Positions 4,420 to 54,772 of a stretch of 55,658 nucleotides of DNA are shown here, piece by piece. Source of the stretch: an uncultured Solibacteraceae bacterium (GTDB lineage: Bacteria; Acidobacteriota; Terriglobia; Bryobacterales; Bryobacteraceae); NCBI GenBank assembly GCA_964520085.1, contig CAZFOP010000001.1, positions 3,015-58,672 of the forward strand, written 5' to 3'. Both the position numbers and the translations under genes were made by a program. The number at the start of each line of letters is the position of its first letter. Positions within the stretch are counted from its first letter, which is position 1. A model generated the notes under the pieces. It searched no databases and was not told the DNA's origin. It worked only from the letters and a program-made list of their open reading frames with translations.

Positions 4420-4478
4420 ACATTCACCGGCCGGCGGTGCGGCAGACAGAGCAGGCCCAGAGGGCCTCACCGTAAGTT

Positions 4479-4529
4479 GAACGAGAAAGCGCCGGAGTGA
4501 CTCAATGTCACTCCGGCGCTTTCTCGTTC
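4479..4529. terminator. Perfect 23-bp-stem hairpin between convergent genes (bidirectional terminator candidate)
   Basis: gaacgagaaagcgccggagtgac / tcaat / gtcactccggcgctttctcgttc is a perfect inverted repeat. It lies 60 nt after the stop at 4419 and 150 nt after the minus-strand stop at 4679. A second small hairpin aggccc-aga-gggcct sits at 4453-4467. There is no U-tract on either side, so intrinsic termination is not certain. Confidence 0.55.
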
Positions 4530-4678
4530 CGGTTCCGGCTTAGCGGCTGAATGTCTCTGCGGAGCGCCACGCAAATGTCGGCATTCCGCTCGCCCAGCGG
4601 GTTGCCGGTCTCTGGAAATTGGAGAAACGCCAGTGGCGGGCGCGGAGGTACAGGCGAGGAGCATCCCCAAGCGGAATG

Positions 4679-6318: not shown

Positions 6319-6502
6319 TGATGATTCCGTCACAGGCCCATTGCTCCGGCGCGAGCCTGAGCGATTAGTCGACTTCTTAGCGTCGCCGTACCCATCCGCA
6401 TCGGGGACATCCTCGAGGCGTAACGCAGTTCGCGTGGCCGCATCTCGATATGTTTCACATCCGCAGACGGCTGCCCCAAGCCCGCGAAAGCGCGCTCCAC
6501 AC

Positions 6503-7297: not shown

Positions 7298-7366
7298 CGG
7301 CTCGACTCCAAGAACAAGTATGTTAGGGTGGTCATTGCGCCTCGAATGCAGGGCCAAGGTGGCTCC

Positions 7367-17198: not shown

Positions 17199-18536
17199 CT
17201 ATTCGAGCTTTTCGTCCGTTGGGCCGTCTGGTACGATGGCCAACAGGCCACTCTCAGACAACAACTGCGCCGCATCGCTGATTGCGGAAAACGGAATACC
17301 CGAACGCTCGGCGATATCCAGCAAAGAGTGCTCTCCATCGGAGAGATTCAGCACCCAGAGGCGCGCCGAGACCTCCAGGCCAGGCGACAGACCACCGGTG
17401 GACCGGTAAAGGTCTCGCCGGCCTAGCTGCGGTTCACAGTAAGGGCGCTGGTTACGATATCGGCGGTTGTTCTCGAGTACGTCCAAAATGGCGGCACACA
17501 GTCGAAGCGATCCGGCCAGTTGAAGTGGGTGAATGAACGAGAGGTCGTCGGCTGAGGTGTGATACTCCGGAAAGGTTCCCCAAACACTCCGCATCAAGCA
17601 GCCGACGGGAAGGTTGAATCCGGGCGAGCAGTATTGCCGCTCGTCATAGCCGTACGGAGAGAACTCGACGATTTCGGAAGATTCATTCTGGTGACGGAGA
17701 ACATGCGCTGCGGCTCGGTCCATCTCTGCATTTCCACGCCGGCTCTTCTTATAATGAAATCCGCCAGCGTCTCCGATGCACGTCAGAACGAGCCCATGCC
17801 GGATGCGCCCAACGCCGTCGTGGTTCTGCGCTAGCCAAGTGATGGCTCCTATTGTCCCGGGGATAAACAAGAAGCGGTACGAGTAATGATGACCACAATC
17901 GGAAAGCAACTTTGCTAGAGCGGTTGCCACGGTCAGCCCCGATAGATTGTCGTTCGCCAAAGACGGATGGCAAACATGAGTCGATATCAGGACCTCGTCG
18001 GTAGAGCGGCCAGGCAGGTAGCACTCTCCGTACGTCAGGCTGCCGGCTTCCAGGGTGGAGTCGACGCATACCTCGTACTCGCCGTCTTCGAGAGCCAGCA
18101 TCTGGTTATGCGAAAGGCAAAATCCCCAATCCTCCTTGTAATAGGACGTCCGGTAAGGAATCCACTCCGGATGCTCCGGAATGGTAAACAGATGCGGCTT
18201 GAGTTCACTCAGCGGCATCGTAGCGCGTACCGGAACGCTGTAATTCAGGACATGAAGGTTCCCCTGCTGAAAATTCACAACTCGCGTCCCGTCCGGCGCC
18301 TTTATATAGGCATCCCTAATGTTCCACTCTTTGGGCACGGTCCAGTCGAAGACCTGGGTCCCCGTCGGTACCTCAATGGTGCGCAGCGGGATGCGATCCT
18401 GAATCAAGGCTAGAGTCCGCCGGATTCCGTCTCCGGTGATACTCCGGCAAATCGGGTAAAGCTCCGCCGCAAAGCGGTGCAACTCCTCGCCAAGTGCCGC
18501 CGTATCCCTGCGACCGAGTTCATTTAGCAAGCCCAT
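17199..18536 (-). CDS. Aminopeptidase-like domain protein (COG4310/DUF4910 type) with C-terminal winged-helix
   Basis: ORF 17199..18602 has a TTG start. The ATG at 18536 overlaps the upstream stop by 1 nt (TGATG). The N-terminal region LYPICRSITGDGIRRTLALIQDRIPL...VPTGTQVFDWTVPKEWNI is the signature I recognise for this family in O-antigen/EPS loci. The C-terminal EHSLLDIAERSGIPFSAISDAAQLL is wHTH-like. Confidence 0.8.
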   Translation of the reverse strand: MGLLNELGRRDTAALGEELHRFAAELYPICRSITGDGIRRTLALIQDRIPLRTIEVPTGTQVFDWTVPKEWNIRDAYIKAPDGTRVVNFQQGNLHVLNYSVPVRATMPLSELKPHLFTIPEHPEWIPYRTSYYKEDWGFCLSHNQMLALEDGEYEVCVDSTLEAGSLTYGECYLPGRSTDEVLISTHVCHPSLANDNLSGLTVATALAKLLSDCGHHYSYRFLFIPGTIGAITWLAQNHDGVGRIRHGLVLTCIGDAGGFHYKKSRRGNAEMDRAAAHVLRHQNESSEIVEFSPYGYDERQYCSPGFNLPVGCLMRSVWGTFPEYHTSADDLSFIHPLQLAGSLRLCAAILDVLENNRRYRNQRPYCEPQLGRRDLYRSTGGLSPGLEVSARLWVLNLSDGEHSLLDIAERSGIPFSAISDAAQLLSESGLLAIVPDGPTDEKLE

Positions 18537-19069
18537 CACAATTGTGCGAAATCTGGATAAGTCCGGTCCCGCTCGGAAATCACTTTTACCGTTGCCGGCC
18601 AAGAGATCTGGAATGCCGGATCATTCCAGCGGGCTCCTCGAGCCGCCTCCGGGCTATACACTTCCGACATTTGATAGAAGACCTCGCTCTCATCTTCCAG
18701 GGTCAGAAAGCCGTGCCCGCATCCTTCTGGCACGTAAACCATGTTACGGTTCGCCGACGTGAGGACCACCCCGATCCAGTCTCTGTACGTCGGCGAGTCT
18801 GGGCGAAGATCGACCACGACATCGTAAATCGCCCCCTTAGTGCAGCGCACTAACTTGGCCTCCGCATAAGGCGGCGACTGATAGTGCATGCCTCGAAGGG
18901 TCCCCTCCCGCGCGTTAAAGGAGATACTGCATTGAACCAGCTTGGAATTCAATCCATTCCGCGCAAACTCATCCTGGCACCAGCAGCGCGCAAAGAAGCC
19001 GCGCTCATCGGATCTGCGTTCGAGGTGAATCTCAAAGGTTCCCGGCAGCTTGGTTCCGTGGAATGTCAT
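18536..19069 (-). CDS. NDP-4-keto-6-deoxyhexose 3,5- (or 3-) epimerase, RmlC-like cupin
   Basis: Motifs DERGFFAR, GTLRGMHYQ, KLVRCTKGAIYDVVVDLR, VYVPEGCGHGFLTL, ARWNDPAF. Confidence 0.85.
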   Translation of the reverse strand: MTFHGTKLPGTFEIHLERRSDERGFFARCWCQDEFARNGLNSKLVQCSISFNAREGTLRGMHYQSPPYAEAKLVRCTKGAIYDVVVDLRPDSPTYRDWIGVVLTSANRNMVYVPEGCGHGFLTLEDESEVFYQMSEVYSPEAARGARWNDPAFQISWPATVKVISERDRTYPDFAQL

Positions 19070-26591: not shown

Positions 26592-27896
26592 TCAGATTTG
26601 TGTGAACAAATTGGTATACTGCTCATCCAAACCGATGCGAAACTGTGCAGCTCTCCGCTTAATCGACGACTTGACCCTTGTCGAATCCCTCTGAAGGTCA
26701 CAGAATTGTTGGATTAGCATCGAGGAATCTAACGTCTTTATGTCCTGGCAGTACTCGGCCAGACCCATGTCGCGCATCAGAGACTTACATTTCTGGTGAA
26801 AGGTGATGGAGATGACCGGTTTGTTCAGTAGAAGAGCCAAAAGAACATTGTGAAACCGGGTTGCAACCACAACGTCGGTCATCGTCAACTGGGAAAGGAG
26901 GTTCTCGACCGAGTCGATTGGATCGTCGATAACGCGTTCCTCATCGTACAGCACTCCACGGTCCTTGAGGAGTGCCCTAAAGTCTCTCGTCACCGGGCGA
27001 TCGCAAACATCCCCAATCAGCAACCTGACATCGTGGTCGTGAGCCAATAGCCAATGGACGAACGTCGCAAGGTTGTCTAAGTAGTCCGTGTAGATCTGTT
27101 TGGCGGGCCGCCCGCCGCTCCGCGACTTCCAATCATATAGCATCAGGCCGACGCCCACAACGCGTCGCCGTCCGGTACCCCGAGTATCGGTCGGCATCGC
27201 ACGGTCCGGCAGACTGAATGCCAAGTCGGGGTACACTCTGTCGGTCAGTGCCGCCGCGCCGAGGCCGCGAAGGTATGTCTTGGTGGCATCATCTCGATAT
27301 GACCGAACATCGGCCAGGGCAAGAAGCATCCTCACCAGGCACCTGCCGAGAGGGCCATGGATCGGACCGGCGCCGACGCTGACGAAAAACAGCTTGCAGC
27401 GGCATAGTTTGGCTACTAAGCACCACTTAAACAGGTTGTACGGGCCCCAGTTGCGAAGTCCATACGCGTCTGTTAGTAGTCCGGTTCCTGCGACGATCAG
27501 GACATCGAGCCTTCTGACGCAGTTAATCGCCTCCAACCATCTGTAGGCTTCGCTTGGCAAACCCACAAGCACCGCTCGGAGTAAGCGTACAAGGCGATTG
27601 CCGCGGAGCCATAGGGGCCTAAGCACTATACCGTTCATCGAGATGGCTTCGGTTCTGTAGGCACTTCTGACCGCATCGGGATCCGTGCAAATGCACACGA
27701 TCTGGGGTTCCGCAAGACGCCGGCGAATATGGTAGAGTACCGCGCCAAGAGTACTTTCGTTTCCGAAGTTACGATCACCGAAGTGGCCAAAGATACCGAT
27801 CCTTTTCAGCCTCGTCTTGGTGTCCATCACGGTCTGTCGCTGTTGCGGACGCTCGCGACGTCTAAGGGGTATGGTTGAGACTGGCTGAGACATCAC
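26592..27896 (-). CDS. Polysaccharide pyruvyl transferase family protein
   Basis: RIGIFGHFGDRNFGNESTLGAVLYHI is the family N-terminal motif. Further motifs are LIVAGTGLLTD and VVATRFHNVLLALLLNKPVISI. Start is uncertain: GTG 27896, ATG 27893 or ATG 27827. Confidence 0.8.
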   Translation of the reverse strand: MMSQPVSTIPLRRRERPQQRQTVMDTKTRLKRIGIFGHFGDRNFGNESTLGAVLYHIRRRLAEPQIVCICTDPDAVRSAYRTEAISMNGIVLRPLWLRGNRLVRLLRAVLVGLPSEAYRWLEAINCVRRLDVLIVAGTGLLTDAYGLRNWGPYNLFKWCLVAKLCRCKLFFVSVGAGPIHGPLGRCLVRMLLALADVRSYRDDATKTYLRGLGAAALTDRVYPDLAFSLPDRAMPTDTRGTGRRRVVGVGLMLYDWKSRSGGRPAKQIYTDYLDNLATFVHWLLAHDHDVRLLIGDVCDRPVTRDFRALLKDRGVLYDEERVIDDPIDSVENLLSQLTMTDVVVATRFHNVLLALLLNKPVISITFHQKCKSLMRDMGLAEYCQDIKTLDSSMLIQQFCDLQRDSTRVKSSIKRRAAQFRIGLDEQYTNLFTQI

Positions 27897-34420: not shown

Positions 34421-35848
34421 TTATACATGTGCGGCGTCATCTACAAGGGTTGTTGGTTGCCCATCCGCCTGAGCGGGCTGGGGTAAAGCAGCCGGATCCG
34501 GCTGCCAGTAGTCCAGGTCGGCCTGGATCGGCGCAGCGCTCTGTCGCTCGTTCTGCGCGCTGTGGAGGCGCATGGTCGCTACCGGGATGATGGCCAAAAA
34601 GGCAAACCACCAGAAGCGGGTCTGGTCCCAATAGGCTGTACCCCAAAACGCTACTACGTGCGATAGCATCACGGCGCAGAGAGACCAGAGGAACCACTCC
34701 TGGTTGCGATCCTGACCGCGCAGCGCCAGTCGACGTGCTGTGCCCAGCGCTCCGAAGCCACGGCGAAGGATCACAATGAACCAGAACAATGCCACGAGAC
34801 CGCCGGATACACCCTCAGCCACTAGCTGGTTCGAGGTGTCTACCGTCTCCGATCCCCAGCTCGCGTCATTCTTCGTTCCAATCAACCACCAATCGGGCCA
34901 GTGTTTGACGAACGTGTCCACTAACTGAGCGCGGTGCCATCCAGATGAAGCGCTGACTATGTCAACGTGGGCAATCACGTACCACACGGGAGCCTTCATC
35001 ACCAAGGACAGAACCACGAGGGTGAGAACGATGCCCCACCGCACGCCGCGCATATAGTGTCGGATCGGCCACAGGCAGAGGCCGCCCACGCTGGCGATCA
35101 TGGCGAGCACGGGAGTGCTGGATGCGGAGGCAAGCACCATTGCGGTGGAACCTGCAAATCCAGCCAGCGCCACGCCCCGCGCCTTGCCGCTCTTCCACAG
35201 CCAAAAGAATAGCGGAATGACGGTCGCCCCGAAAACGCCGGCGAGGACCGGATGGCCGAAGGCGCCTTGGGCGCGGATCTGCCCGTCACGAAACTGCGGG
35301 ACCACGCTGAAGCTTCCGGCGTAGCCGAAGACGTTCACGCCGCGCAGTCTCTCATTCAACATGCCAGCACCCATGATCAGTGTTACAACGACGAGTAACT
35401 TGGCCGCCCGCGCGACATCGTCCTCATCCTGAATGAGATAACGCAACACAAAGTACCCACCGAGCGCATCCAGAAGAAAAGCCATCTGGTTCACTACTGC
35501 GCCACCTTCCCGATACAGGAGCATGAAAGCTACTGCACGTGACACCGCCCACAAACAGAAGGCTTTGTCAAGCGTGTTAGAACTTCCTGCGACCCGCATT
35601 TCCTTCTTAGCCGCGGCGACACGCACGCAACCAGTCAGTATGACTGTTCGCAGTACGAACCAATGTACGCCGCCCAAGTACAGTTGTTGCCCAAATGGCG
35701 TTACCAAGGCGATCAGAAAGAGCGGAACCATCGCCTGCTTCCGCGGCAACACCAACACCAGTATTATGGCGAGCAGCATCGCCGCCAGCACCGCGGGGTG
35801 CATGACAGTCGCCGCCGCTCCACCACCGAAATAGAAGCTATTGCCCAA
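34421..35848 (-). CDS. O-antigen polymerase/ligase-like (Wzy_C type) polytopic membrane protein
   Basis: 475 aa with about 10-12 TM helices and one large loop, no soluble domain, in an EPS operon that also has Wzx and Wzz. The TTG start at 35848 overlaps the upstream stop by 11 nt. An alternative ATG lies at 35803. Confidence 0.7.
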   Translation of the reverse strand: MGNSFYFGGGAAATVMHPAVLAAMLLAIILVLVLPRKQAMVPLFLIALVTPFGQQLYLGGVHWFVLRTVILTGCVRVAAAKKEMRVAGSSNTLDKAFCLWAVSRAVAFMLLYREGGAVVNQMAFLLDALGGYFVLRYLIQDEDDVARAAKLLVVVTLIMGAGMLNERLRGVNVFGYAGSFSVVPQFRDGQIRAQGAFGHPVLAGVFGATVIPLFFWLWKSGKARGVALAGFAGSTAMVLASASSTPVLAMIASVGGLCLWPIRHYMRGVRWGIVLTLVVLSLVMKAPVWYVIAHVDIVSASSGWHRAQLVDTFVKHWPDWWLIGTKNDASWGSETVDTSNQLVAEGVSGGLVALFWFIVILRRGFGALGTARRLALRGQDRNQEWFLWSLCAVMLSHVVAFWGTAYWDQTRFWWFAFLAIIPVATMRLHSAQNERQSAAPIQADLDYWQPDPAALPQPAQADGQPTTLVDDAAHV

Positions 35849-38311: not shown

Positions 38312-39910
38312 TCAGTTCACCTCTGTCGACACGGCTGGCGGGGCTTGAGGCATTTGCATTTGTGCCGAGGTGGATTGGTAAGCGCCAATGTCCCAGTTTC
38401 CGGTGCCGCTAGGAGGTCGCGAGGCCGCACTCTTGTCCAAATCGAGCGCAGCAATCCCGAGGCCACTTAGATTGAATCCCGCCTTAATCAGGGGCGATCC
38501 AGCATTGGGTTGATACGAAGAGCTAAGGTTTGGGTTGGTGTTTTGTTGCGAGTGGGCATCACACGAACAACTGGCCTGCCAAGCCGCAAACGCCTCATTG
38601 TTCCACTCTGTGACGTTATAGTAATTGTTGTAATCGCCTTTGCCCGACGCGATCGTCCCCCCGTAATAGGAACTCAGCGTAACAGCCGGAGTGGTGGCCT
38701 GGAGAGTATTGTTCATAAACGTCGCTCCGGCTCCGTCAATCAGGACTCCTCCCGATCCTACCGACGTGGATCCAATTATCGTATTGTTCACGATGATTGG
38801 CGCTGCTCCGTCCGTCGATATGAAGCCATTGCCAGCGTGCGCAACGGAACTCTGGTCCACGAGAACGTTGTTGTACACCTCAGGGCCAGTCCAATGGGAG
38901 TTTCCGGAATCGCCCTCCAGGAATATCCAGGCGTTGACACCTGCGCCCCAATCCCCGTAGATGTAGTTATTGTAGACCTGAACGTTTGTCGTAACCCCGG
39001 ACGTACCGTAGTTGTACACATGGATACCGTCGTGATGGTAGTAGTTCTGCGAGCTGTCCCACGGCTGCGCATCATGGATGATGTTGTCGTGGATGAATAT
39101 ATTGGATGCGGTTGCGGATGCGTTCGAAAGGTCGCCAAAGATGCCATGATCCATGTGGTAGGCGGTATTGCCGTAGATATAGATGCTTCCCTGGGCTCCT
39201 GTTCCATATGCGTCGCTGTAGCCGAAGCACCAGTGGAGATCGTGGCAGGTGCTGTTCGCAATCGTCAGGTTGCTTCCGTTTTCAACGGCTGCGCCTCCAG
39301 TGTTGCCTCCGCTGGAGTCAGTACAGTTTCCAATTGGCTCGGTGCAAGAGCGGACGTACAGATTCTGAACCGTAAGATTCTGAACCGTCATGTAACTCCC
39401 CGTAGCGAGCAACACACCATTTCCATTGTCCTGCTGGTTAGCATACCCCAGGCTAGCCATACCGTTGTTTGTCGCCTGAATGATTCCGTTCGTTCCACCG
39501 TCAACCGTGATGTAACTGTGGCCGGTGGAAAAGATGACGTTGCCGCTCCAGTATGTAGCCTGCAAGATCGCATTTGGTTCGAATAATAGCGTAAGGGTGT
39601 TACCGGCTGTGCCTCCACCTTGGAAGACGAGAAAATTGCTAGATCCTGGAGCCGCAGTGATCGTTCCACACAAATGAACCGTGGTACCCGGGCCGATCTG
39701 TATTCCGCTTGGCGTACCCGAAGTCCAGTTGCTGCTGGTGTTGAAGTACGTGTACGCAAAGGCGCTGCTGCAACTGGATCCGCTTGCGCCCGCCGCGGCA
39801 GTCTGTGCGAGGTATACGACATTGGCGCTCGCCGTGGGCTGAAGGACCAGACACACGGCAACGCTGAGCCCGAACACAAACGAGCCAATTCTGCGCCTTG
39901 ACAAGGGCAT
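38312..39910 (-). CDS. Secreted right-handed parallel beta-helix protein (candidate polysaccharide hydrolase/lyase/epimerase)
   Basis: ORF 38312..39970. From ATG 39910 the N-terminus MPLSRRRIGSFVFGLSVAVCLVLQPTASA is a classical signal peptide. The body shows periodic beta-helix rungs: LTVQNLYV, LTIANSTCHD, IYIYGNTAYH, IFIHDNIIHD, VQVYNNYIYGD, EVYNNVLVD, IIVNNTIIG, TFMNNTL. Confidence 0.75.
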   Translation of the reverse strand: MPLSRRRIGSFVFGLSVAVCLVLQPTASANVVYLAQTAAAGASGSSCSSAFAYTYFNTSSNWTSGTPSGIQIGPGTTVHLCGTITAAPGSSNFLVFQGGGTAGNTLTLLFEPNAILQATYWSGNVIFSTGHSYITVDGGTNGIIQATNNGMASLGYANQQDNGNGVLLATGSYMTVQNLTVQNLYVRSCTEPIGNCTDSSGGNTGGAAVENGSNLTIANSTCHDLHWCFGYSDAYGTGAQGSIYIYGNTAYHMDHGIFGDLSNASATASNIFIHDNIIHDAQPWDSSQNYYHHDGIHVYNYGTSGVTTNVQVYNNYIYGDWGAGVNAWIFLEGDSGNSHWTGPEVYNNVLVDQSSVAHAGNGFISTDGAAPIIVNNTIIGSTSVGSGGVLIDGAGATFMNNTLQATTPAVTLSSYYGGTIASGKGDYNNYYNVTEWNNEAFAAWQASCSCDAHSQQNTNPNLSSSYQPNAGSPLIKAGFNLSGLGIAALDLDKSAASRPPSGTGNWDIGAYQSTSAQMQMPQAPPAVSTEVN

Positions 39911-40115
39911 GCCCGCCAGTTTTCCTCCAAAGAGCGAGGGAGCCGTTACATTTTCCAGTTTTGGTGCCATACGTCACGTATAGTAACAGTTCGGCTCGCC
40001 GGGTCAACATCCCCTTTTTAGTACTGTTAAATGTCTACCGTTAGTTAATGCTGACGCAAAGCATGACCCGTCATACCGTTCACGCGGCTATCGTTTGACG
40101 AAACAGCCTGGTCGA

Positions 40116-43677: not shown

Positions 43678-44913
43678 CTACGCCCCAGCACGGGAAGCGA
43701 ATACCCGCTTGCCAGCTTCCTTCTCGTAGACGAATGACTCCAGTTGCCGGACAACTTGCGTCAACTGGTCATCCTCCAACCCTGGGTACATGGGCAACGA
43801 TAGGATCTGGCCCGCTGCCTTTTCGGAAACCGGAAAGTCGCCGGCCTTATATCCGAGGTGGGCGCAAGCCTTCTGCAGGTGGATCGGAACCGGATAGTGG
43901 ATTCCGGAGCCGATACCAGCGTTCGCCAAATGTTGCTGCAGGCCATCGCGGTTGTCAGCACGGACGACGAACAGATGGTACACTGCCTTGGACCCGCGTG
44001 GCTCATGGGGCAGGCCGATGCTCTCGCCGATTGCGCCGATCTGTTCGCGATACCGGGATGCACATTCCCGGCGTTGCTCGTTCCAGCGGGCTAAATGCTC
44101 CAACTTGACCTTCAAGATGCCCGCCTGTAGCGCGTCCAGGCGGCCGTTGTATCCCTCGATGTCGTGATAGTACTTCTGTGCTTGCCCGTGATCGCGAAGC
44201 ATCCGGATCTTCTTCGCGAGCCTCGCGTCGTTGGTCGTTACCGCCCCAGCCTCGCCGCATGCTCCCAGGTTCTTGCCGGGATAGAAGCTAAATGCGGCAG
44301 CGCGCCCCATCGTCCCAGCCTTCCTCCAGCGGCCTTCCTTCTTCGAGAAGTACTCGGCGCCATGAGCCTGACAGGCATCCTCCACAACGGTCAGGTTGTA
44401 CCGGTCCGCCAGATTCAAGATGGAATCCATGTCGGCAGTCTGGCCGTATAGGTGCACGGGAACGATTGCCGTCACGCGATTTCCACTCTTTCGGTCGATT
44501 AGGTGACCTGTGTCGCCGTTAACAAAGCACTCGCCTTCGAGGTACTCCTGGAGCTTGCGAGGGTCCATGTTATACGTCTGCTCGTCAACATCCACGAATT
44601 CCGGCCGAGCACCGGCCTGCGCAATGGCCTCCGTGGTCGCAATGAATGTGTTCGGAACGGTGACTACTATGTCCCCGGTCTCGATCCCTGCCGCGATCAG
44701 AGCGAACCTCAACGCGTCCGTACCGCTCGCAACCCCGACGCAGTGGCGGGTGTCGCAGAATCTAGCGAACTCTCGCTCAAAACCTTCCACCATCGGTCCG
44801 CCGATGAAGCCTGCGCTGCCCAAGGCATTTGCAAACACCTCACACAGTTCCTCTCGTAACTGCCGATGCGGCGTAATAAGATCCAATAAAGGAATCGTAC
44901 TTTTCTCGCTCAT
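43678..44913 (-). CDS. DegT/DnrJ/EryC1/StrS family PLP-dependent sugar aminotransferase
   Basis: IPLLDLITPHRQLREEL...FIGGPMVEGFEREFARFC...GVASGTDALRFAL...AFSFYPGKNLGACGEAGAV. Confidence 0.9.
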   Translation of the reverse strand: MSEKSTIPLLDLITPHRQLREELCEVFANALGSAGFIGGPMVEGFEREFARFCDTRHCVGVASGTDALRFALIAAGIETGDIVVTVPNTFIATTEAIAQAGARPEFVDVDEQTYNMDPRKLQEYLEGECFVNGDTGHLIDRKSGNRVTAIVPVHLYGQTADMDSILNLADRYNLTVVEDACQAHGAEYFSKKEGRWRKAGTMGRAAAFSFYPGKNLGACGEAGAVTTNDARLAKKIRMLRDHGQAQKYYHDIEGYNGRLDALQAGILKVKLEHLARWNEQRRECASRYREQIGAIGESIGLPHEPRGSKAVYHLFVVRADNRDGLQQHLANAGIGSGIHYPVPIHLQKACAHLGYKAGDFPVSEKAAGQILSLPMYPGLEDDQLTQVVRQLESFVYEKEAGKRVFASRAGA

Positions 44914-45410
44914 TCAGTCCCCCGAAATGCTTTTAACGCCAGGGTCCTCAAAACCCGGGCTGGGTTCCCCGCAACAATCGTGTCGGCGGGAACACTCTTA
45001 GTCACGACACTGCCGGCGCCGACGATAGCACGTTCACCCACGACCACATTCGACAAGATAGTGGCCCCGGATCCAATGGACGCCCCTTTCTTGATAACGG
45101 TCTTCTCCACCTTCCAGTCCGCCTCCGTTTGTAAGCCTCCTTCGGCGGTGGTGGCGCGAGGATAGCTATCGTTGATGAACATAACGCCATGCCCTATGAA
45201 CACGCCCTCTTCGATCGTGACCCCTTCGCAGATAAAGGTGTGGCTGGATATCTTGCAGTCTTTCCCGATGCTTGCGTTCTTCTGGACCTCGACAAAAGCG
45301 CCAATCTTCGTGTTGTCGCCAACCTCACAGCCGTAAAGGTTAATGAACCTGGAGAACTTCACATTCTTGCCAAGCTTCACGTCCGGCGCAATGCACAGAT
45401 AGTCGCTCAT
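44910..45410 (-). CDS. Left-handed beta-helix (hexapeptide-repeat) sugar N-acetyltransferase (WbpD/WlbB-like)
   Basis: Hexapeptide periodicity runs through KLGKNVKFSRFINLYGCEVGDNTKIGAFVEVQKNASIGKDCKISSHTFI ... GASIGSGATILSNVVVGERAIVGAGSVV. There are 4-nt overlaps with both neighbours. Confidence 0.85.
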   Translation of the reverse strand: MSDYLCIAPDVKLGKNVKFSRFINLYGCEVGDNTKIGAFVEVQKNASIGKDCKISSHTFICEGVTIEEGVFIGHGVMFINDSYPRATTAEGGLQTEADWKVEKTVIKKGASIGSGATILSNVVVGERAIVGAGSVVTKSVPADTIVAGNPARVLRTLALKAFRGTE

Positions 45411-46414
45411 AGACGCACCGCGGTACCCTTATCTGCGAGCGATCGGTCTGCCGCTTCCAGCAGCTTGACTACGCGCAAGCCGGCGAGTCCGTCGTTGAAG
45501 GGCGTCTCGTCGAGCGTAATGCACTTGATGAAGTACTGGATTTCCGAGGCCAGCGCTTCGGTTTGCTCGACTTTAGGTGCCCACATGTCGCCCGTCCGAT
45601 AACTCACGAGCACATCGTAAACGCCCTGGCGGCTCTTGATCTCCACGCCCTTGTCGTATACCTTGATCTTTTCATCTGCGTCCAAGTCGTTCCACACAAC
45701 CATCTTTTTTTCGCCTCCCAAGAGGGTCGTGCGGACCTTGACCGGCGACAGCCAATTCACATTGAAATGCGCGATCACGTTGTCGCTGAAATAGATGGTG
45801 ATATACGCGACGTCCTGATGGCTGTTGAGATGCTTCTGCCCGGTTGCGGCCAGAAACTCCGGTTTCGATTTCACGAGGTGGTCCATGATCGAAAGGTCGT
45901 GAGGCGCAAGATCCCAGATGACATTAATATCGTGCTGAAACAGGCCCAAGTTCACTCTGGTGGAATCGTAATAGTAGAGTTGCCCCAGAGTGCCGTCGTC
46001 GATGAGTTGCCCAATTTTCTTGACCGCTCCCGTGAACAGGAAGGTGTGATCGACCATGATCGTCAGGTGTTTCCTGGCGGCCAACTCGATCAACTCTTCC
46101 GCTTGCGCAGCGGTCGACGTAAAGGGCTTCTCGACAAAGACATGCTTGCCGTTTTCCAGGGCTGCCTTAGCCAACTCGAAGTGGGTCCAAACCGGCGTGA
46201 TCACAGCGACGGCATCGATCTGCGGCGACCGCAGCACTTCGGAGGCGTCGCACGTTACCTGCACGCCGGGATAGGCGTGCTGGATCCGCCGGTGGACGGT
46301 AGGATTCTGGTCGCAGATTACTGAGACCTCGCAACCGTCGGCGGCGTGGAAATTGCGCGCGATCTGCGGTCCCCAGTAGCCATAACCGATAATGCCGACT
46401 CGGATCATTGTCAT
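45407..46414 (-). CDS. Gfo/Idh/MocA family NAD-dependent sugar oxidoreductase (WbpB-like)
   Basis: IRVGIIGYGYWGPQIARNF (Rossmann), GKHVFVEKP (EKP motif). Confidence 0.85.
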   Translation of the reverse strand: MTMIRVGIIGYGYWGPQIARNFHAADGCEVSVICDQNPTVHRRIQHAYPGVQVTCDASEVLRSPQIDAVAVITPVWTHFELAKAALENGKHVFVEKPFTSTAAQAEELIELAARKHLTIMVDHTFLFTGAVKKIGQLIDDGTLGQLYYYDSTRVNLGLFQHDINVIWDLAPHDLSIMDHLVKSKPEFLAATGQKHLNSHQDVAYITIYFSDNVIAHFNVNWLSPVKVRTTLLGGEKKMVVWNDLDADEKIKVYDKGVEIKSRQGVYDVLVSYRTGDMWAPKVEQTEALASEIQYFIKCITLDETPFNDGLAGLRVVKLLEAADRSLADKGTAVRL

Positions 46415-46421
46415 TCCACTG

Positions 46422-47585
46422 TTAGCAGGCGCCAGATCCGGAGATGACCGCTAGAGGCGTTCGGAGGAGAATCTTGACATCGAGCCACAACGACCATGAC
46501 CTGGCGTACCTGATGTCCATACGAACCATTTCATCGAACTTCACCCGGCTTCGGCCTTCAACTTGCCATAGGCCAGTTATCCCCGGCTTCATCGCCATGA
46601 GACGCTCCTTATGCCACAAGTGGTAGCACTTGAATTCATACATTACCGGGGGCCGCGGCCCAACCAAGGACATTTCGCCGCTCAAGACATTGAGCAATTG
46701 CGGCAGTTCGTCCAGGCTGGTTTTTCGTAGGAATTGCCCCACGCGCGTGATTCTCGGATCCGCCGTCAACTTGTATCGCTTTCGCTGGTCCGGTCCGTCC
46801 TGTTCCGTGCCTTCGGCGCCAGCGATAAACCGCTTCACGTAATGCTCATGGATTGCGTGGTTGTTTCCGACGTACATGGATCTGAATTTCAGGAACGTGA
46901 ACTTCCTTCCGTACTGGCCTAGCCTGACCTGCCGGAAGAGGATGGGGCCCTTCGATGTCAGCTTGATTGCGATGGCAATTGTGGCCAGTATTGGGAGACA
47001 GAGCGCCAGGACGGTCAGGCTACCTGCAATATCCATCAGCCTCTTTAGGACGGCGGCGACCTGCTTCGTCTTGGTGCCTCGCACCAGTTCCAAGTGTAAG
47101 GTCGAGTTGGCTGGCCCATCAGGGCCATCGTTGTCCCAATCTTCGGGGAAGACGTGGAAAGAGAGACTAATCTCGTTCATTTGTTCGACACTCAGGGCGC
47201 CGTATAGAGCGGCGGTGACTTTAGCCGACAGGGCCTTCACTACCGTTTGATTGTCGTCGCCGCCGATCTCCGTGAAGATGACCCCGAGAGCGAATTCTCG
47301 CCCATACCACCCTTTAATGTCCGTGTCGCGGGTTGCCTGCGATAGCGCCCGCCAAACCTGCTCGATGACCACTTCTGAGTTGCCTTCCTTCAGCAGCTTG
47401 CCGGATTCGAGGAGCATTAACACAAAACGCCGATGGGAACGCTCGGTTCTTTTGCGTTCTAGCCTGAGCAACCGCATGAAAAGCTCTTGGGGAAGCACAT
47501 CGAAGCCCTGAGGTTCATCCGGGGCGGAGAATAGTCGTGATGGTGGCGGGTACGTTGGTCTAAGACGAGAGATATTGTTTAGCAC
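46422..47585 (-). CDS. Priming polyprenyl-phosphate sugar-phosphate transferase (bacterial sugar transferase family) with N-terminal degenerate GGDEF-like domain
   Basis: The C-terminal half reads LKRLMDIAGSLTVLALCLPILATIAIAIKLTSKGPILFRQVRLGQYGRKFTFLKFRSM...RVGQFLRKTSLDELPQLLNVLSGEMSLVGPRP...PGITGLWQV, the canonical PGT core. The N-terminal 150 aa align by eye to a GGDEF fold (see findings). Confidence 0.85.
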   Translation of the reverse strand: MLNNISRLRPTYPPPSRLFSAPDEPQGFDVLPQELFMRLLRLERKRTERSHRRFVLMLLESGKLLKEGNSEVVIEQVWRALSQATRDTDIKGWYGREFALGVIFTEIGGDDNQTVVKALSAKVTAALYGALSVEQMNEISLSFHVFPEDWDNDGPDGPANSTLHLELVRGTKTKQVAAVLKRLMDIAGSLTVLALCLPILATIAIAIKLTSKGPILFRQVRLGQYGRKFTFLKFRSMYVGNNHAIHEHYVKRFIAGAEGTEQDGPDQRKRYKLTADPRITRVGQFLRKTSLDELPQLLNVLSGEMSLVGPRPPVMYEFKCYHLWHKERLMAMKPGITGLWQVEGRSRVKFDEMVRMDIRYARSWSLWLDVKILLRTPLAVISGSGAC

Positions 47586-47693: not shown

Positions 47694-48278
47694 CTACGTG
47701 GGCAGAGAAGCTGCTACTAGTGAGGGTCGGATTTGGGTCGCCATGGGACGCCCGCTCGCGTCGAGCGGCGCGATCCAGTCGCGGTCGATTTCCACCGCTA
47801 CGGACCTTTTCAAAAGAGTCACCGAGACAACGACTCGGCATCGCTTGCGAGCCTCGACAAGGAAGCCTTCCAGGCCAGCCAGAGGCCCCTCCTCAACGCG
47901 CACTCGCTGCCCAGCCTCCAAGAATGGCCACGGCTCAGCCGACAGGCCCGAAGATACGGCATTTTGAATCGCGAGGATCTCTACGTCATCGATGGGCACG
48001 GGAATCTTTCCGATGCCCACAAAGTGGAGGACGCCCGGTATGGTCAGTAGTGGCAGCCGGTGCCGCGGGTCCAATCGGCAAAACACGTACCCCGGGAAGA
48101 GCGGGAACTCAACCGCTTTTACGCGATCCGACCATCGCCGGCGGGATCGGTAAAACGGCAAGAACTCTTCGAACCCCTTGCTGTGCGCAATCGTGGAGAC
48201 AACCCTTTCATGGCGCGACTTCACGTGAAGAGCGAACCACTGTTCCGTGATCGAACCGACCGTTATTTCGGTATTCAT
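47694..48278 (-). CDS. NusG paralog (RfaH/UpxY-like operon-specific transcription antiterminator)
   Basis: The NGN domain is WFALHVKSRHERVVSTIAHSKGFEEFLPFY...FPLFPGYVFCRL. The KOW motif is GQRVRVEEGPLAGLEGFLVE. It is the first gene of the long minus-strand operon. Confidence 0.85.
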   Translation of the reverse strand: MNTEITVGSITEQWFALHVKSRHERVVSTIAHSKGFEEFLPFYRSRRRWSDRVKAVEFPLFPGYVFCRLDPRHRLPLLTIPGVLHFVGIGKIPVPIDDVEILAIQNAVSSGLSAEPWPFLEAGQRVRVEEGPLAGLEGFLVEARKRCRVVVSVTLLKRSVAVEIDRDWIAPLDASGRPMATQIRPSLVAASLPT

Positions 48279-49944: not shown

Positions 49945-52900
49945 TTACTGGGCGGCCTCAATTGCAATCGCGACCGTGTTACTGATGATCGTGTTTCCGC
50001 TGGAATCCTCTGTCTGGACGACAACTGGGACACTGTCGCCGGGAGCAACGCCGGCTGGCACTGTCACGTCGATCTGATAGACACCCGCCATTCCGGCCAT
50101 TGGTTGGACTTGGCTCGCCGTCGTCGAGACACCCCCAATGGAAATCCTCAGCGATGGGCTGTCTTCGAGTCCGGCTCCGCTGGCCAGGATCGAGATCGTG
50201 TCACCCGGTTCCACGGGCTGACCGCTGTTCAGATAGCTGCGCGGCGCGGCAAGCAGAGCCGTGCCGGCAAGCATCACCATTCCTTGACCTTGCCCTGAGC
50301 CGTCCGCGGAATAGATTCCCAGCGTAACCTTCTGATTGGCGGGGATCGCGTTGGATGCCACACCATCGATCTGGGCCGAAATCGCCAGCTCCCCTCCTGC
50401 TAGCGCGGCGGGGCAGATGAAGTCGACTCGGGTCGGCGCAGCATACACCACGGGAGCCGGGCTGCCATTCACATTCACCTGGGCACCGGCGAGTTGCGAC
50501 GACCTCGCAGTTTGATCTGAAGCCGGCTGGGTGCCCGTTGAGAGCCACCGGCCTATGAGGCTTGCCACCGAACCCGGAGTGCAACTCATCGAGGCTGGAC
50601 GGTTTAGAATCTTGATCCCGGAAAGTGTGACCTGTGAGATCTGGCTAGCGGCGTTTCGAAGGTCTGTGATCACTGGCCGCCCCGGATCGGCTTCGATCCT
50701 CACGAAACCGGTAGAGGCATGGTTCTCCGAATCGGTAGCGGTGAACGCAACCTCGTATCCCTCCAACGGGGCTGACCGGTAAAGCTGGTCGGCGACAGGG
50801 GGTGGTGCCTCCGGCGTCCAGGAGAATCCGCCGGTGGCGGGATCAAACGAGGCGCCGGGCGGCAGGTTGGCCGCCGACAACACCAACTGTAATCGGCCCG
50901 GATCCACGGCCGAAAACCTGAAGGCCATCGGCTCTCCAAACGCAGCCAGTTGCCGGCCAGGCAGGTTGAGGACCGGTGCGGTGGCCGGTGTTACCACTAC
51001 CGAATCCGTCACCACCGTCTGTCCAAACTGCACGGACACAATCGACGACTGCTGCCCGGCCAAGGGCGTCGTGAAGACCTCGAAACTGAGTTGCGCCTGC
51101 CCGGGACGCGTCGGGAACGGACTGGGAAACTCGAAACTTGTGTTGTTGCTCGTGGCGGCCAGCAGGGCCACCTGAGGAACATTTGGCGTGTTCATACCGA
51201 TCGTGCAGGTGAAGAAACTGCCGGCTGGGACCGTCTGAGGCGCGCAGGAAAGGCCCGTGGGACGGATGCCAGTGATCGGCACGCTGGTCGTTGCCGACGC
51301 CCCTGTCGCCGACGCAGTGATCTGGACCTGCACGTCCTGGTCGGACGATGTTACACTTGCAACGAACTGGGTTTCCTGGGCGCCAGCGGGGATGACAATC
51401 TGGGCCGGAACTTGTACGCGCGAAGTGTTCGCCTGAAGGCCGACGGTCGTACCGCCCGCCGGCGCACTCTCAGCGGACCAAACCGTGCAGTTAAGCCTGC
51501 CGGCTCCGGTGAGATCCGGATGGCAGACAATCGACCAGGACGAGCCCTGTGAAGCTTGCAAGCTGATCCACGCACTCTCCGACGTTCCGTTCAATAAGGC
51601 CGTCACGATAGCCGTCTGGTCACTGGAAACGGCGCCGGCGCTGGCCGTAAAGCTCGCGGCAGTGGAACCGGCGGGGACGATCACAGACGGCGGAACCGTC
51701 AGCGCCGCGGCATTGCTCGATAGTGCCACTGCCACGCCGCCAGCGCCCGCCGAGCTCGATAGCGTAACCGTGCACGTGGAGGTCCCACCCGCGGCCAGAC
51801 TCGTCGGTGTGCAGGATAAAGAACCCACGAAAACGGGCGCCACAAGCGATATAGTCATCTGCGAACTGCCGTTATACGAAGCCGTCACCACTGCCATCTG
51901 GTTCGTAGTGAATGTGCCCGCTGTGGCTATCAAGTTCGCCTCGGTCGCGCCCGCCGCCACGTTTACGGTTGCGGGAACTGTCAGTGCCGCCGCGCTACTC
52001 GATAGCGTCACTGTGATTCCGCCCGAACTAGCGGCCTGTGACAGAGTTACCGTACAGGCGGCCGTGGCTCCCGGAGTAAGGCTTGCCGGATTGCAGGACA
52101 CCTGGCTAACCTTGGTCGGTGCCACCAGCAGTAGCGACGCCGTCTGCGAACTGCCGTTGTAAGTGGCCGTCACAACCACCGTCTGGTTACTCGATACCGT
52201 ACTGGCTGAACCCGTGAAACTGGCTGTACCGGAGCCGCTCGAAACTGTCACCGAGCCAGGAACGGTAAATGCCGCTGCGTTGCTTGAGAGCGTCACCGAC
52301 GCTCCGCCCGTGCCGGCCGTCTTCAATAATGTCACGACACAGGTCGATGTGCCACCTGAACTGAGGCTCGTCGGAGCGCACGCCAACGAGCTCAAGGCCG
52401 GCGCTATGGATACCAGCGCCAGAGTCTGCGTTTGGGAGCTGCCATTCAGTGAGGCCGTGATGACAGCCGTCTGGTCGGCGGAGATCGCGCCCGCCGTCGC
52501 CGTGAAGCTGGCCGATATTGCGCCCGATGCCACGTTCACTGAGGCCGGAACCGTCAGGGCCGCAGCGCTGCTCGATAGAGTAACGGTGATCCCGCTCGAG
52601 CCAGCCGCTTGCGACAGTGTGACCGTGCAGGCCGATGTTCCGCCCAAACTCAAGCTCGTCGGGCTGCACGACACCAGGCTGACGGTCGTGTTTGGCACCA
52701 CCAGTGAGATCGACGCCGTCTTGGAGCTGCCGTTGTACGAGGCCGTGACTACAGCCGACTGGCTCGCTGTAATCGTACCCGCCGTCGCCGTGAAGCTGGC
52801 CGATATCGCGCCCGATGCCACGTTCACCGAGGAAGGAACCGTCAGTGCCGCGACGCTGCTCGATAGAGTAACGGTGATCCCGCTCGAGCCAGCCGCTTGC

Positions 52901-53778
52901 GACAGTGTGACCATGCAGGCCGATGCTCCGCCCGAGCTCAAGCCAGTCGGGCTGCACGACACCAGGCTGACGGTCGTGTTTGGCGCAACCAGTGAGATGG
53001 ACGCCGTCTTGGAGCTGCCGTTGTACGAGGCCGTGACGACGGCCGACTGGCTCGCTGTAATCGTACCCGCCGTCGCCGTGAAGCTCGCCGAGGCCGCGCC
53101 CGATGCCACGTTCACCGATGCAGGTACAGAGAACTCACTGGCACCACTGGAAAGGTCGACCGTAGCGCCGCCGGCCGGTGCCGGCTGGTTGAGCGAAGCT
53201 GCGCAGGTTGACGAAGCACCGCTGGTGAGCGATGTAGGGTTGCACGAAAGCCCAGTCAACGCCGGCAACGAGACCGGCGGCGATGAGAGAGTGACGGTTC
53301 CGCCCGTGCCGGTCATCGAAAGTTGGCCTCCAGCGGAGCTCGTGGCCAGCGGTTCGGTCAGTCCGACCGGCGTGGTGACCGCCGAGGTCGTCATCGTGAC
53401 GGTAATCACAGCAACAACCCCGTTTTGTATCGGCGTCCCGTTGAACCCTGACAGCAGGCATGTATTGGAACCGGCGCTTGAGAAGCAGCTAATAGTCTTC
53501 CCCGCTGCGGTCACGCTGGCGCCCGAGACGGCGGTGATGGAGGAAACATTACCGGCCGAATAGGTCAGCGTCCACTGGAGTCCCGTCGGCTCGCTTTCCG
53601 CCTGAGAGTTCAAAGACAAGTTCAGCGCGACGGTTCCGCCCGGGGCAGCAGTGGCTGAAGATAGTGTCAGCGTGTCCTGTGCGAGCGCCATACCTGGCAC
53701 GATTGCGAGGACAACAGTCAGAAACAACCCGCACCCCACGGGGTGCAGCAGTCTCTTTTCACGGACCTTACTGTGCAA
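49945..53778 (-). CDS. Large modular surface protein: signal peptide, cohesin-like domain, 8 two-Cys Ig-like modules (~96 aa each), Solibacter-type C-terminal domain
   Basis: ORF 49945..53862. TTG at 53778 lies 8 nt after GGAGG and gives MHSKVREKRLLHPVGCGLFLTVVLAIVPGMALAQ. The cohesin-like head is LTLSSATAAPGGTVALNLSLNS...LQWTLTYSAGNVSSI...GKTISC...NGVVAVITVTM. The modules repeat LSC-PTSL--G--S-C-V-L-----GG--V-LSS-------P-SV-V--G---A-F-A-A. The C-terminal ~235 aa (NAASQ...VNVNGSPAPVVYAAPTRVDFICP...GQGQGMVM...ISIGGVSTTASQVQPMAGMAGVYQIDVTVPAG) resemble the uncharacterised Solibacter C-terminal domain as I recall it. Confidence 0.85.
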   Translation of the reverse strand: MHSKVREKRLLHPVGCGLFLTVVLAIVPGMALAQDTLTLSSATAAPGGTVALNLSLNSQAESEPTGLQWTLTYSAGNVSSITAVSGASVTAAGKTISCFSSAGSNTCLLSGFNGTPIQNGVVAVITVTMTTSAVTTPVGLTEPLATSSAGGQLSMTGTGGTVTLSSPPVSLPALTGLSCNPTSLTSGASSTCAASLNQPAPAGGATVDLSSGASEFSVPASVNVASGAASASFTATAGTITASQSAVVTASYNGSSKTASISLVAPNTTVSLVSCSPTGLSSGGASACMVTLSQAAGSSGITVTLSSSVAALTVPSSVNVASGAISASFTATAGTITASQSAVVTASYNGSSKTASISLVVPNTTVSLVSCSPTSLSLGGTSACTVTLSQAAGSSGITVTLSSSAAALTVPASVNVASGAISASFTATAGAISADQTAVITASLNGSSQTQTLALVSIAPALSSLACAPTSLSSGGTSTCVVTLLKTAGTGGASVTLSSNAAAFTVPGSVTVSSGSGTASFTGSASTVSSNQTVVVTATYNGSSQTASLLLVAPTKVSQVSCNPASLTPGATAACTVTLSQAASSGGITVTLSSSAAALTVPATVNVAAGATEANLIATAGTFTTNQMAVVTASYNGSSQMTISLVAPVFVGSLSCTPTSLAAGGTSTCTVTLSSSAGAGGVAVALSSNAAALTVPPSVIVPAGSTAASFTASAGAVSSDQTAIVTALLNGTSESAWISLQASQGSSWSIVCHPDLTGAGRLNCTVWSAESAPAGGTTVGLQANTSRVQVPAQIVIPAGAQETQFVASVTSSDQDVQVQITASATGASATTSVPITGIRPTGLSCAPQTVPAGSFFTCTIGMNTPNVPQVALLAATSNNTSFEFPSPFPTRPGQAQLSFEVFTTPLAGQQSSIVSVQFGQTVVTDSVVVTPATAPVLNLPGRQLAAFGEPMAFRFSAVDPGRLQLVLSAANLPPGASFDPATGGFSWTPEAPPPVADQLYRSAPLEGYEVAFTATDSENHASTGFVRIEADPGRPVITDLRNAASQISQVTLSGIKILNRPASMSCTPGSVASLIGRWLSTGTQPASDQTARSSQLAGAQVNVNGSPAPVVYAAPTRVDFICPAALAGGELAISAQIDGVASNAIPANQKVTLGIYSADGSGQGQGMVMLAGTALLAAPRSYLNSGQPVEPGDTISILASGAGLEDSPSLRISIGGVSTTASQVQPMAGMAGVYQIDVTVPAGVAPGDSVPVVVQTEDSSGNTIISNTVAIAIEAAQ
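52480..53115. repeat. Near-identical 288-bp in-frame tandem repeat (about 2.2 copies) inside the large surface-protein gene
   Basis: Unit starts are gccgatattgcgcccgatgcc at 52511, gccgatatcgcgcccgatgcc at 52799 and gccgaggccgcgcccgatgcc at 53087. Copies 52511-52798 and 52799-53086 differ at roughly 20 of 288 positions by eye. More diverged copies of the same 288-bp (96-codon) period extend from about 50980 to 53265. Confidence 0.85.
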
Positions 53779-54772
53779 GTGGTCAACCTCCAGATCTTGG
53801 GTGCCACATGCACCTGGCTCAAGCGTGCACGTGGCGCGCGCGGCTGCTCGCCAGCTGGCCAACTCTAAAATCTATTCTGAACCCTTTATCCTCAAAACTG
53901 TCGTTTGGAGATTCTCTGCACTGCTGCGGTTCTCCCCAAAAACGCCGACCAACGCAGGATTGGAGAATCCCGGACGGCGCACGCCACGCCGAGTGCCGCT
54001 TGGCCTGGCACAGAGCTGACTGATTACGAGGCACACGACACCCCGAAACACCGAATCGAATTGCTGAAGCTTCAGCACTGCAACTGGAGTGCCAGCACTC
54101 ATTGGTTGGCGATTCAAGGAGTTCATTCCATCAGTCGAGTTTTCGAGCGCGTTTTACATTGTCAAATACCCAGGACCAGGAAGTTTTTTCATGAGTTGCA
54201 GGGCCGCGTATCTCGCTGGCGTCCGGCCGCTGTCACATCGACCACGAGCCGCCAAAGACTCCGATGGAGAACACGAAGACGCTTGCCTGTGCGTTCAGCA
54301 GAGATCCGCGTCAAGTCGATCATGCAACCGGCGCGTTCGCGCGGCGGCCTGCCGGACCGCACCCAAGTTTACAAGTGAAACGTCTGCTCGGTTGGCTTCC
54401 CGCGCCAGGAGCGTCTTCGGCCGTCTTAGGTCATGACCGCTCGGCCTCAGGCCTGTCCGGTGACCTCACTCGGCTCTTGCGCAACTGGCAACACACGCCG
54501 GCTATCGATCCTGGTTTATAGGATTTGCAGAATAACGGCTCCAAAATGCTGAAAATAACTCGAATGAGCTTGATCCTGATCCTGAAATTAACTACTGGCG
54601 AAGTGGTAGTAAGTGTTGCAAGTGGTCGCAAACAAAGCGCCCCACCAAAGACATCTACCTTGGTCGTGCACCTTCGGAGGGCTTTTGGGTACTAACTATT
54701 CACAGTCTGGTTAAACACGGATTCAGTCGACTATATTCAGATCGTAAACGTAAGGGAATCCAGTTAACCGAA

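Follow-up and report, generated by a model that had tools for sequence, protein, structure and literature searches.

A shortened, degenerate GGDEF-like domain with a conserved RxxD motif fused to the initiating phosphoglycosyl transferase of an acidobacterial exopolysaccharide locus

PelD of Pseudomonas aeruginosa, PssE of Listeria monocytogenes and YdaK of Bacillus subtilis are degenerate-GGDEF receptors that bind cyclic di-GMP (c-di-GMP) at the inhibitory site (I-site) and activate exopolysaccharide synthesis. A domain of related kind is found in a 387-residue protein encoded in a 55,658-nucleotide stretch of DNA from an uncultured Solibacteraceae bacterium (contig CAZFOP010000001.1, positions 3,015 to 58,672; the whole stretch is referred to here as the window), where it is fused to a phosphoglycosyl transferase. 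Like the three receptors, this fusion protein combines a dead GGDEF fold with a retained RxxD motif, is membrane-anchored and is encoded within a polysaccharide cluster. PelD, PssE and YdaK are separate subunits of synthase-dependent systems (Pel, Pss and Yda) with a full-length GGDEF domain, accompanied in PelD by a GAF domain, whereas the domain of the fusion protein has approximately 120 residues and is covalently joined to a transferase of the Wzx/Wzy type, the enzyme that it would regulate. Post-translational control by c-di-GMP has been shown for the three receptors and is proposed for the fusion protein.

Post-translational control of Wzx/Wzy pathways is incompletely understood; control by c-di-GMP is characteristic of the synthase-dependent pathways, and PelD-type degenerate-GGDEF receptors are cited (PMC12802240). 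How the first lipid-linked Wzx/Wzy step, which competes with peptidoglycan for scarce undecaprenyl phosphate, is throttled is largely unknown. [quoted passage not shown] The signal of EpsW is the phosphorylation of a separate receiver protein, whereas the fusion protein has its sensor within the transferase and would presumably respond to a nucleotide second messenger. Small transferases fused to regulatory domains, including receiver domains, have been reported (O'Toole 2021, via PMC12802240), and the citing article names no GGDEF-type fusion among them. A full-text literature search, which did not extend to the fusion catalogue of O'Toole et al. 2021, returned no description of a GGDEF-type phosphoglycosyl transferase fusion, in agreement with the original prediction, which was aware of no characterized phosphoglycosyl transferase built in this way. 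Pfam-based catalogues would miss the N-terminal domain, because it scores below threshold.

The fusion gene is read from a GTG start and encodes, in order, the degenerate GGDEF-like domain (N-domain), a linker, a re-entrant membrane helix and a Bac_transf domain. Its main parts, in window coordinates, are as follows.

46422–47585, minus strand: whole fusion gene, 387 residues (open reading frame; full-length homologues)
47136–47501, minus strand: minimal GGDEF-fold domain, residues 29–150 (AlphaFold2, Foldseek, hhalign, and profile against solved structures in the Protein Data Bank (PDB))
46962–47045, minus strand: hydrophobic re-entrant membrane helix, residues ~181–208, with P198 (Kyte–Doolittle hydropathy; start of the Bac_transf match)
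46443–47045, minus strand: Bac_transf phosphoglycosyl transferase catalytic domain, residues 181–381 (PF02397; WbaP structures; invariant columns)

More than 100 homologues of 380–390 residues (62–81% identity) span 100% of the length, including the first 56 residues, and thereby support the long frame with its GTG start. On this comparison the GTG at position 47585 is a better start than M57, at which the deposited gene call begins (P0121; 331 residues, 100% identical), truncating the N-domain. The segment missing from that call (47418–47585, minus strand) corresponds to helix α0 and strand β1 of the N-domain. Further database entries for such proteins are likewise shortened, to 357–358 residues.

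The C-terminal half is a Bac_transf domain, as originally predicted: residues 181–381 match PF02397 with an E-value of 8.3e-66 (221.4 bits against a cut-off of 27; profile positions 1–178 of 179). The NCBIfam EPS_sugtrans, WbaP and WcaJ families match residues ~170–386 only, and solved structures of WbaP and PglC are likewise matched over this C-terminal part (E-values of 2.4e-45 to 1.3e-28, the former for WbaP). The TIGR03013 family EpsB_2, the XrtA/PEP-CTERM sugar transferase, matches the catalytic part alone and misses its cut-off (151.5 bits against 393), even though an exosortase and XrtA-type chain-length and kinase genes are present in the locus. The Asp-Glu dyad D292-E293 and the P310-R311-P312 motif are invariant among 102 full-length homologues and in 77 of 77 aligned genomic copies; because the dyad is invariant, the transferase is presumably active. 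Hydropathy analysis (Kyte–Doolittle) detects one hydrophobic segment in the whole protein, at residues 182–200, in which P198 is invariant. By analogy with the PglC/WbaP family, its topology would be monotopic and re-entrant rather than membrane-spanning, and, the hydrophobic segment being single, the N-domain presumably lies beside the catalytic domain on the cytoplasmic face. The fusion protein thus shares with PglC, WbaP and EpsZ the Asp-Glu dyad, the PRP motif and a single re-entrant helix, and its layout is that of a ‘small’ monotopic transferase preceded by approximately 175 soluble residues. WbaP-type enzymes carry four N-terminal transmembrane helices and a Rossmann-like domain and PglC-type enzymes carry nothing N-terminal, whereas the fusion protein carries the soluble GGDEF-like domain. 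The gene thus specifies the polyprenyl-phosphate phosphoglycosyl transferase that initiates synthesis in an exopolysaccharide locus of Wzx/Wzy type with an associated exosortase.

The original prediction had recognized a GGDEF-like pattern at residues ~29–150 by eye; the nucleotides that it gave, 47136–47501, do encode these residues, both peptides that it quoted are present, and its numbering of R86 and D89 is correct. Searches with the single sequence are indecisive (Pfam GGDEF PF00990, E-value of 0.22 and 11.7 bits against a gathering threshold of 23.8; NCBIfam SiaD, E-value of 0.0022), so family profiles were needed. The family was collected as 124 matches, from which 51 domain sequences were aligned. 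Searched against solved structures, the profile of these 51 members matches best the c-di-GMP-bound GGDEF domain of GcbC (PDB entry 5euh, E-value of 0.0018), and GGDEF domains make up 11 of the 16 matches listed. A control alignment of 55 genuine PF00990 proteins was retrieved with the GcbC segment, and hhalign aligns the 51-member family with it over 92 columns (probability of 94.5%, E-value of 7.6e-8). Among individual members, 15 of 51 touch PF00990 (best E-value of 7.9e-4), and any other Pfam family is touched by at most three.

The AlphaFold2 model of the N-domain has a predicted local distance difference test score (pLDDT) of 84.5 and a predicted template modelling score (pTM) of 0.79, and consists of a helix, strand, helix, β-hairpin, helix and strand (α0, residues 33–50; β1, 54–60; helix, 70–84; β2, 90–93; β3, 99–104; α3, 112–130; β4, 140–146). 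All 50 of its best Foldseek matches in the PDB are GGDEF domains (best E-value of 7.9e-6; template modelling (TM) scores of 0.6–0.7). Homology of the N-domain to GGDEF is established, far beyond chance; a merely fortuitous resemblance is ruled out by the profile, profile–profile and fold matches together. What the original prediction did not anticipate is that the fold is shortened: seven residues are deleted at the NDxxGH segment, the C-terminal α4/β5–7 part is absent, and the model ends after β4 at about residue 146, followed by a predicted disordered linker to the membrane helix.

The closest size-matched structure is PDB entry 6khu, a 131-residue Thermotoga maritima ‘DGC protein’ (TM scores of 0.68/0.70, root mean square deviation of 2.8 Å), which is also a weak sequence match to the family profile (E-value of 0.1). 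It may be another naturally truncated GGDEF domain and would illustrate that shortened GGDEF folds exist, in an unrelated context and without fusion to a transferase.

The catalytic apparatus of a diguanylate cyclase has decayed, as the original prediction held, with one acidic position kept. The register of the GGDEF features, on which the hhalign and HMMER alignments agree, places two of them as follows.

47286–47303, minus strand: equivalent of the GG[DE]EF hairpin, G95-R96-E97-F98-(A99)-L100, degenerate and not conserved (both alignments)
47406–47408, minus strand: E60, at the position of the first metal-binding Asp (hhalign; D or E in 112 of 133 copies)

The residue counts for the domain given here and below come from an unbiased set, obtained by a HMMER-only search of 1.84 billion cluster representatives, in which 133 domain copies from 130 new representatives (50%-identity clusters) were realigned; counts from the set of related loci would be circular for the residues concerned, those loci having been picked with the motifs [LV]ERKRTERS and R[DE]TD..GWY. 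Across this set the five GGDEF-equivalent positions are mixed (K/R/E, D/E/K, G/D/N, S/A and V/I). The second metal-binding Asp aligns with G62. In the hhalign alignment the guanine-recognition segment NDxxGH, part of FKxxNDxxGHxxGD, is deleted, and in the AlphaFold2 models the C-terminal part with the phosphate-binding K/R is absent. Because the hairpin is variable, NDxxGH deleted and the C-terminal third absent, the alignments and models place it beyond doubt that the N-domain is catalytically dead and no longer able to make c-di-GMP. The sequence YGREF, which the original prediction took for a reduced GGDEF motif, is rejected as a conserved relic: it is off by one residue from the aligned register, its positions vary freely in the family, and its likeness to GGDEF is peculiar to this one protein. 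The opposite proposal, that the N-domain is an active though unorthodox diguanylate cyclase making c-di-GMP locally, could invoke the GGDEF fold and the acidic residue at the first metal site, and is effectively refuted by the same losses of sequence.

The residues of the I-site have fared differently. Two segments carry them.

47319–47330, minus strand: RxxD motif R86-D87-T88-D89 at the I-site position (aligned to the RxxD of GcbC and of the 55 GGDEF domains)
47439–47459, minus strand: E43-R44-K45-R46-T47-E48-R49 in helix α0 (hhalign columns; R49 in the column of WspR R198)

R86 and D89 fall on the RxxD columns in both alignments, which bears out the position claimed in the original prediction, and R86 is present in 133 of 133 copies and D89 in 131. 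As in the active cyclases WspR, PleD, GcbC and DgcZ, the motif starts nine residues ahead of the hairpin's first Gly position, and it stands five residues upstream of the hairpin, as it does in the PelD-type receptors. The family signature around it is R-[ED]-T-D-x-x-G-W-Y, with T88 conserved in 127 copies, G92 in 133 and W93 in 131; elsewhere in the domain, E43 (132), R46 (131), R49 (129) and K/R122 (129) stand out. On these counts the RxxD motif is the most conserved feature of the family. It is reportedly dispensable for the GGDEF fold and carried by only about half of active cyclases, so its invariance needs a specific reason.

The I-site of WspR consists of R242-x-x-D245 together with R198 from a neighbouring GGDEF domain, with GGEEF at residues 251–255, and the R242A and R198A mutants both purify nucleotide-free (PMC2270323). 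Four near-invariant residues of the 55-protein alignment, R33, R77, D80 and G86, lie at a constant offset of 165 from WspR R198, R242, D245 and G251, and hhalign places their columns on R49, R86, D89 and G95 of the fusion protein. By this alignment all three WspR I-site residues have conserved counterparts, in R49, R86 and D89. The arginine of helix α0 equates to the residue that completes the I-site of WspR from a second GGDEF domain, and E43, R46 and R49 match the GGDEF α0 hallmark E-x-x-R-x-x-R-S. We take PleD R313 to be the counterpart of WspR R198. The selective keeping of I-site residues while the GGDEF positions drift is the pattern of the known I-site receptors. In active cyclases the I-site serves product inhibition of an active site (A-site) in the same domain, whereas the fusion protein has no A-site and its output would be a different enzyme.

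The architecture is widespread. The family, mostly acidobacterial, comprises 2,924 cluster matches at E-values of at most 1e-3 (1,742 at 1e-10 or below) among the 1.84 billion representatives, and a scan of GTDB with one genome per species, seeded by a 12-sequence subset, found at least 566 loci; locus statistics refer to the best 80 of these. Almost all of the 80 belong to Acidobacteriota (Bryobacterales, Terriglobales, Acidobacteriaceae and Sulfotelmatobacter), and a few lie in metagenome-assembled genomes (MAGs) assigned to Rokubacteria, Tepidisphaeraceae and Treponemataceae. The closest genomes are Bryobacteraceae MAGs from peat, with approximately 80% amino-acid identity.

In these loci, 78 of 82 open reading frames with the N-domain have it fused to Bac_transf; the other four comprise one at a contig end, one apparent frameshift and two stand-alone copies (loci L067 and L072), each approximately 3.5 kb upstream of a fused gene. 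In a further locus (L081), a 196-residue stand-alone paralogue (P0102; 191–781, plus strand) lies directly upstream of the fused transferase (841–1995, plus strand), which is followed by the same downstream genes as elsewhere. Three transferases of 505–628 residues (P0253, P0254 and P0255) carry two tandem N-domains, each copy keeping R-x-T-D..GWY. The N-domain thus essentially always travels with the transferase, often in pairs, and the tandem and stand-alone copies suggest that the domains pair.

Several peculiarities accompany these arrangements. The stand-alone copy in L081 is a member of a subgroup ending in LGLDPVIG, and in the fused copy G-R-Y replaces G-W-Y, nearer to the canonical R-Y-GGDEF. 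One representative of 905 residues (P0310) has an aspartokinase (AA_kinase and ACT) fused N-terminally to the domain–transferase protein; in L067, the genes separating the stand-alone domain from the fused transferase encode an ATP-grasp protein and an aspartokinase (2928–5779). Both cases point to a link with amino-acid activation.

Because the A-site elements are lost while the I-site residues are kept under strong selection, the N-domain probably serves as an inbuilt receptor through which c-di-GMP exerts allosteric control over the transferase, a reading to which we assign a probability of about 0.55. Gating of the transferase by c-di-GMP, as the original prediction proposed, is the most economical interpretation, and is strengthened by the conserved R49 and by the tandem and stand-alone paired copies. 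We infer the ligand, the mechanism of bridging and dimerization and the sign of regulation as follows. C-di-GMP would bind R86-x-x-D89 of one N-domain, and an intercalated c-di-GMP dimer would bridge this RxxD and R49 of a second N-domain, as in WspR and PleD. This partner domain might belong to another subunit, a tandem copy or a stand-alone paralogue; tandem and stand-alone-plus-fused arrangements would be expected if two domains had to pair. Bridging would alter the oligomeric state or the domain packing of the transferase, and the altered state would set the rate of the first lipid-linked step and hence polysaccharide initiation. High c-di-GMP is assumed to turn the pathway on, by analogy with PelD, PssE and YdaK. 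The architecture is solid, whereas the c-di-GMP switch is plausible but unproven.

A number of observations weigh against a c-di-GMP receptor. The N-domain is approximately 40 residues shorter than any GGDEF domain shown to bind c-di-GMP, and PelD is not among the top sequence or fold matches of the N-domain. Ordinary GGDEF domains conserve R49, R46 and E43 too, so a structural role may explain some of this conservation. The third I-site arginine, which we take to be PleD R390 and PelD R402, has no exact counterpart in the fusion protein; the conserved K/R122 lies about one helical turn away, in an uncertain register that depends on the alignment with solved structures and on this PleD numbering. 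The invariant T88, G92 and W93 belong to no I-site so far described, a hint that the function may be modified or another one. Neither the window nor the sequence up to 6 kb from the 80 related loci contains a canonical diguanylate cyclase gene, and open reading frames with GG[DE]EF, as candidates for partner cyclases, number none in the window and one chance-looking match among the 80 loci. Small monotopic transferases have been reported to work as monomers (PMC12802240), which sits poorly with a dimerization switch. The full-length AlphaFold2 model, built with 102 close homologues, is too poor to inform on domain packing (pLDDT of 56.9, pTM of 0.36).

The alternative that survives best, although we consider it unlikely, is that the N-domain is a GGDEF-derived scaffold without nucleotide binding, an oligomerization or docking module in which R-x-T-D-x-x-G-W-Y is conserved as an interface. 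Its partner could be the tyrosine autokinase/chain-length regulator, the stand-alone paralogue or the catalytic domain of the same protein. T88, G92 and W93, which are not I-site residues of any described receptor, would find a ready place in such an interface, and the conserved, aromatic-rich F143-H-V-F-P-E-D-W150 at the domain end suggests a packing surface. The tandem and stand-alone copies fit protein–protein pairing equally well as ligand bridging, cyclase genes are absent nearby, and large transferases dimerize through their non-catalytic domain (PMC12802240). A scaffold does not readily account, however, for the residues that were kept while the catalytic parts decayed: they are exactly the three c-di-GMP-binding positions of WspR- and PleD-type domains, conserved at 97–100%, and the dispensability of RxxD for the fold leaves its invariance in want of a specific cause.

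A nucleotide sensor for a ligand other than c-di-GMP is less probable again. The candidates are pGpG, GTP/GDP, (p)ppGpp, another cyclic dinucleotide, or feedback by a uridine nucleotide or UDP-sugar. In its R-[ED]-T-D-x-x-G-W-Y signature the site departs from canonical I-sites, and the fold itself is cut short. Binding of GTP or ATP is known for degenerate GGDEF domains of the PdeA/CC3396 and GdpP types, and a proposal exists that WbaP binds nucleotides through its non-catalytic domain. The GTP- and ATP-binding domains, however, use the A-site, which is deleted here together with NDxxGH, GG[DE]EF and the C-terminal K/R; the I-site is the one ligand site still recognizable, and the ligand known for it is c-di-GMP.

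Within the c-di-GMP receptor itself, and counted inside its probability, the ligand could act as an inhibitor, an occupied I-site holding the protein inactive as it does in cyclases, with polysaccharide made at low c-di-GMP. The ancestral role of the I-site, inhibition by domain immobilization (PMC2270323), would favour this sign of regulation, and the polysaccharide may be either capsule-like or a biofilm matrix. We consider it improbable, given the exosortase/PEP-CTERM features of the locus, which typify matrix or floc formation. The degenerate-GGDEF I-site receptors known from polysaccharide machines, namely PelD, PssE and YdaK, are all reported to be activators.

Should c-di-GMP prove to act through the N-domain, a second messenger would for the first time be seen to control a phosphoglycosyl transferase, and with it the committed Wzx/Wzy step, directly; no coupling could be more direct than a sensor within the transferase polypeptide. 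The N-domain would also be the smallest GGDEF-derived c-di-GMP-binding module and would show which parts of GGDEF suffice for recognition. More tentatively, with the odds leaning somewhat against it, the family could constitute a phylum-wide class of c-di-GMP effectors, in which a miniaturized, I-site-only GGDEF domain sits in the initiating transferase and a c-di-GMP dimer cross-links two such domains to switch initiation on. The architecture is found predominantly in peat and soil Acidobacteriota, in habitats whose aggregation and carbon retention are influenced by exopolysaccharides. Current annotation lists these proteins as plain sugar transferases, with the domain below Pfam and NCBIfam thresholds and sometimes trimmed off, as in the 331-residue call.

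The window is almost entirely occupied by one minus-strand exopolysaccharide locus of the exosortase/PEP-CTERM type (4679–48278). Read 5′ to 3′ on the minus strand, from high to low coordinates, it begins with a NusG-like gene, the fused transferase and a trio of sugar-modification genes, followed by the rest.

47694–48278, minus strand: NusG-family (RfaH/UpxY-like) antiterminator, first gene of the cluster (PF02357, E-value of 3.3e-17)
43678–46414, minus strand: trio of Gfo/Idh/MocA oxidoreductase, hexapeptide acyltransferase and DegT aminotransferase, downstream of the transferase (Pfam)
38312–39970, minus strand: 552-residue open reading frame with one N-terminal hydrophobic segment and no Pfam or NCBIfam match
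34421–35848, minus strand: 475-residue multi-span membrane protein with at least seven hydrophobic segments and no Pfam or NCBIfam match, a candidate Wzy-type polymerase
26592–27896, minus strand: pyruvyl transferase
11574–13052, minus strand: Wzx-type flippase
7367–9067, minus strand: Wzz/XrtA-type chain-length determinant
6503–7357, minus strand: tyrosine autokinase
5590–6516, minus strand: LuxR-type response regulator
4679–5593, minus strand: exosortase

Because of this gene content, the locus is a Wzx/Wzy-dependent, exosortase-associated system. Between the trio and the terminal genes are a deacetylase, RmlC, an epimerase and RmlD, several GT2/GT4 glycosyltransferases, methyltransferases and the pyruvyl transferase. 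The position of the transferase as the first gene after a NusG-like antiterminator is shared with PglC, WbaP and EpsZ, and of the 80 related loci, 28 have a NusG-like gene on the same strand upstream of it. Scans for promoters and terminators around the fusion gene gave background levels, and no Rfam family, including the c-di-GMP riboswitches, was detected in the window.

The trio is widely retained: across the 80 loci the oxidoreductase is present in 68, the acyltransferase in 61 and the aminotransferase in 58, lying downstream on the same strand in 55, 54 and 50, respectively. As amino-sugar modification genes they probably supply the nucleotide-sugar donor of the transferase, and the conserved module of transferase and trio suggests that the first sugar is a di-N-acylated amino sugar. 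The trio resembles the WbpB/WbpD/WbpE-type route to a 2,3-diacetamido sugar, a resemblance that would predict the donor substrate.

Two further genes of the window deserve mention. One, in the middle of the cluster (17199–18602, minus strand), codes for a DUF4910/DUF2172 protein that has a winged-helix HTH_47 domain. The other, a 1305-residue open reading frame (49945–53862, minus strand), has only a weak match to the Ig-like family He_PIG and a local G+C content of 0.63, against approximately 0.57 elsewhere in the window.

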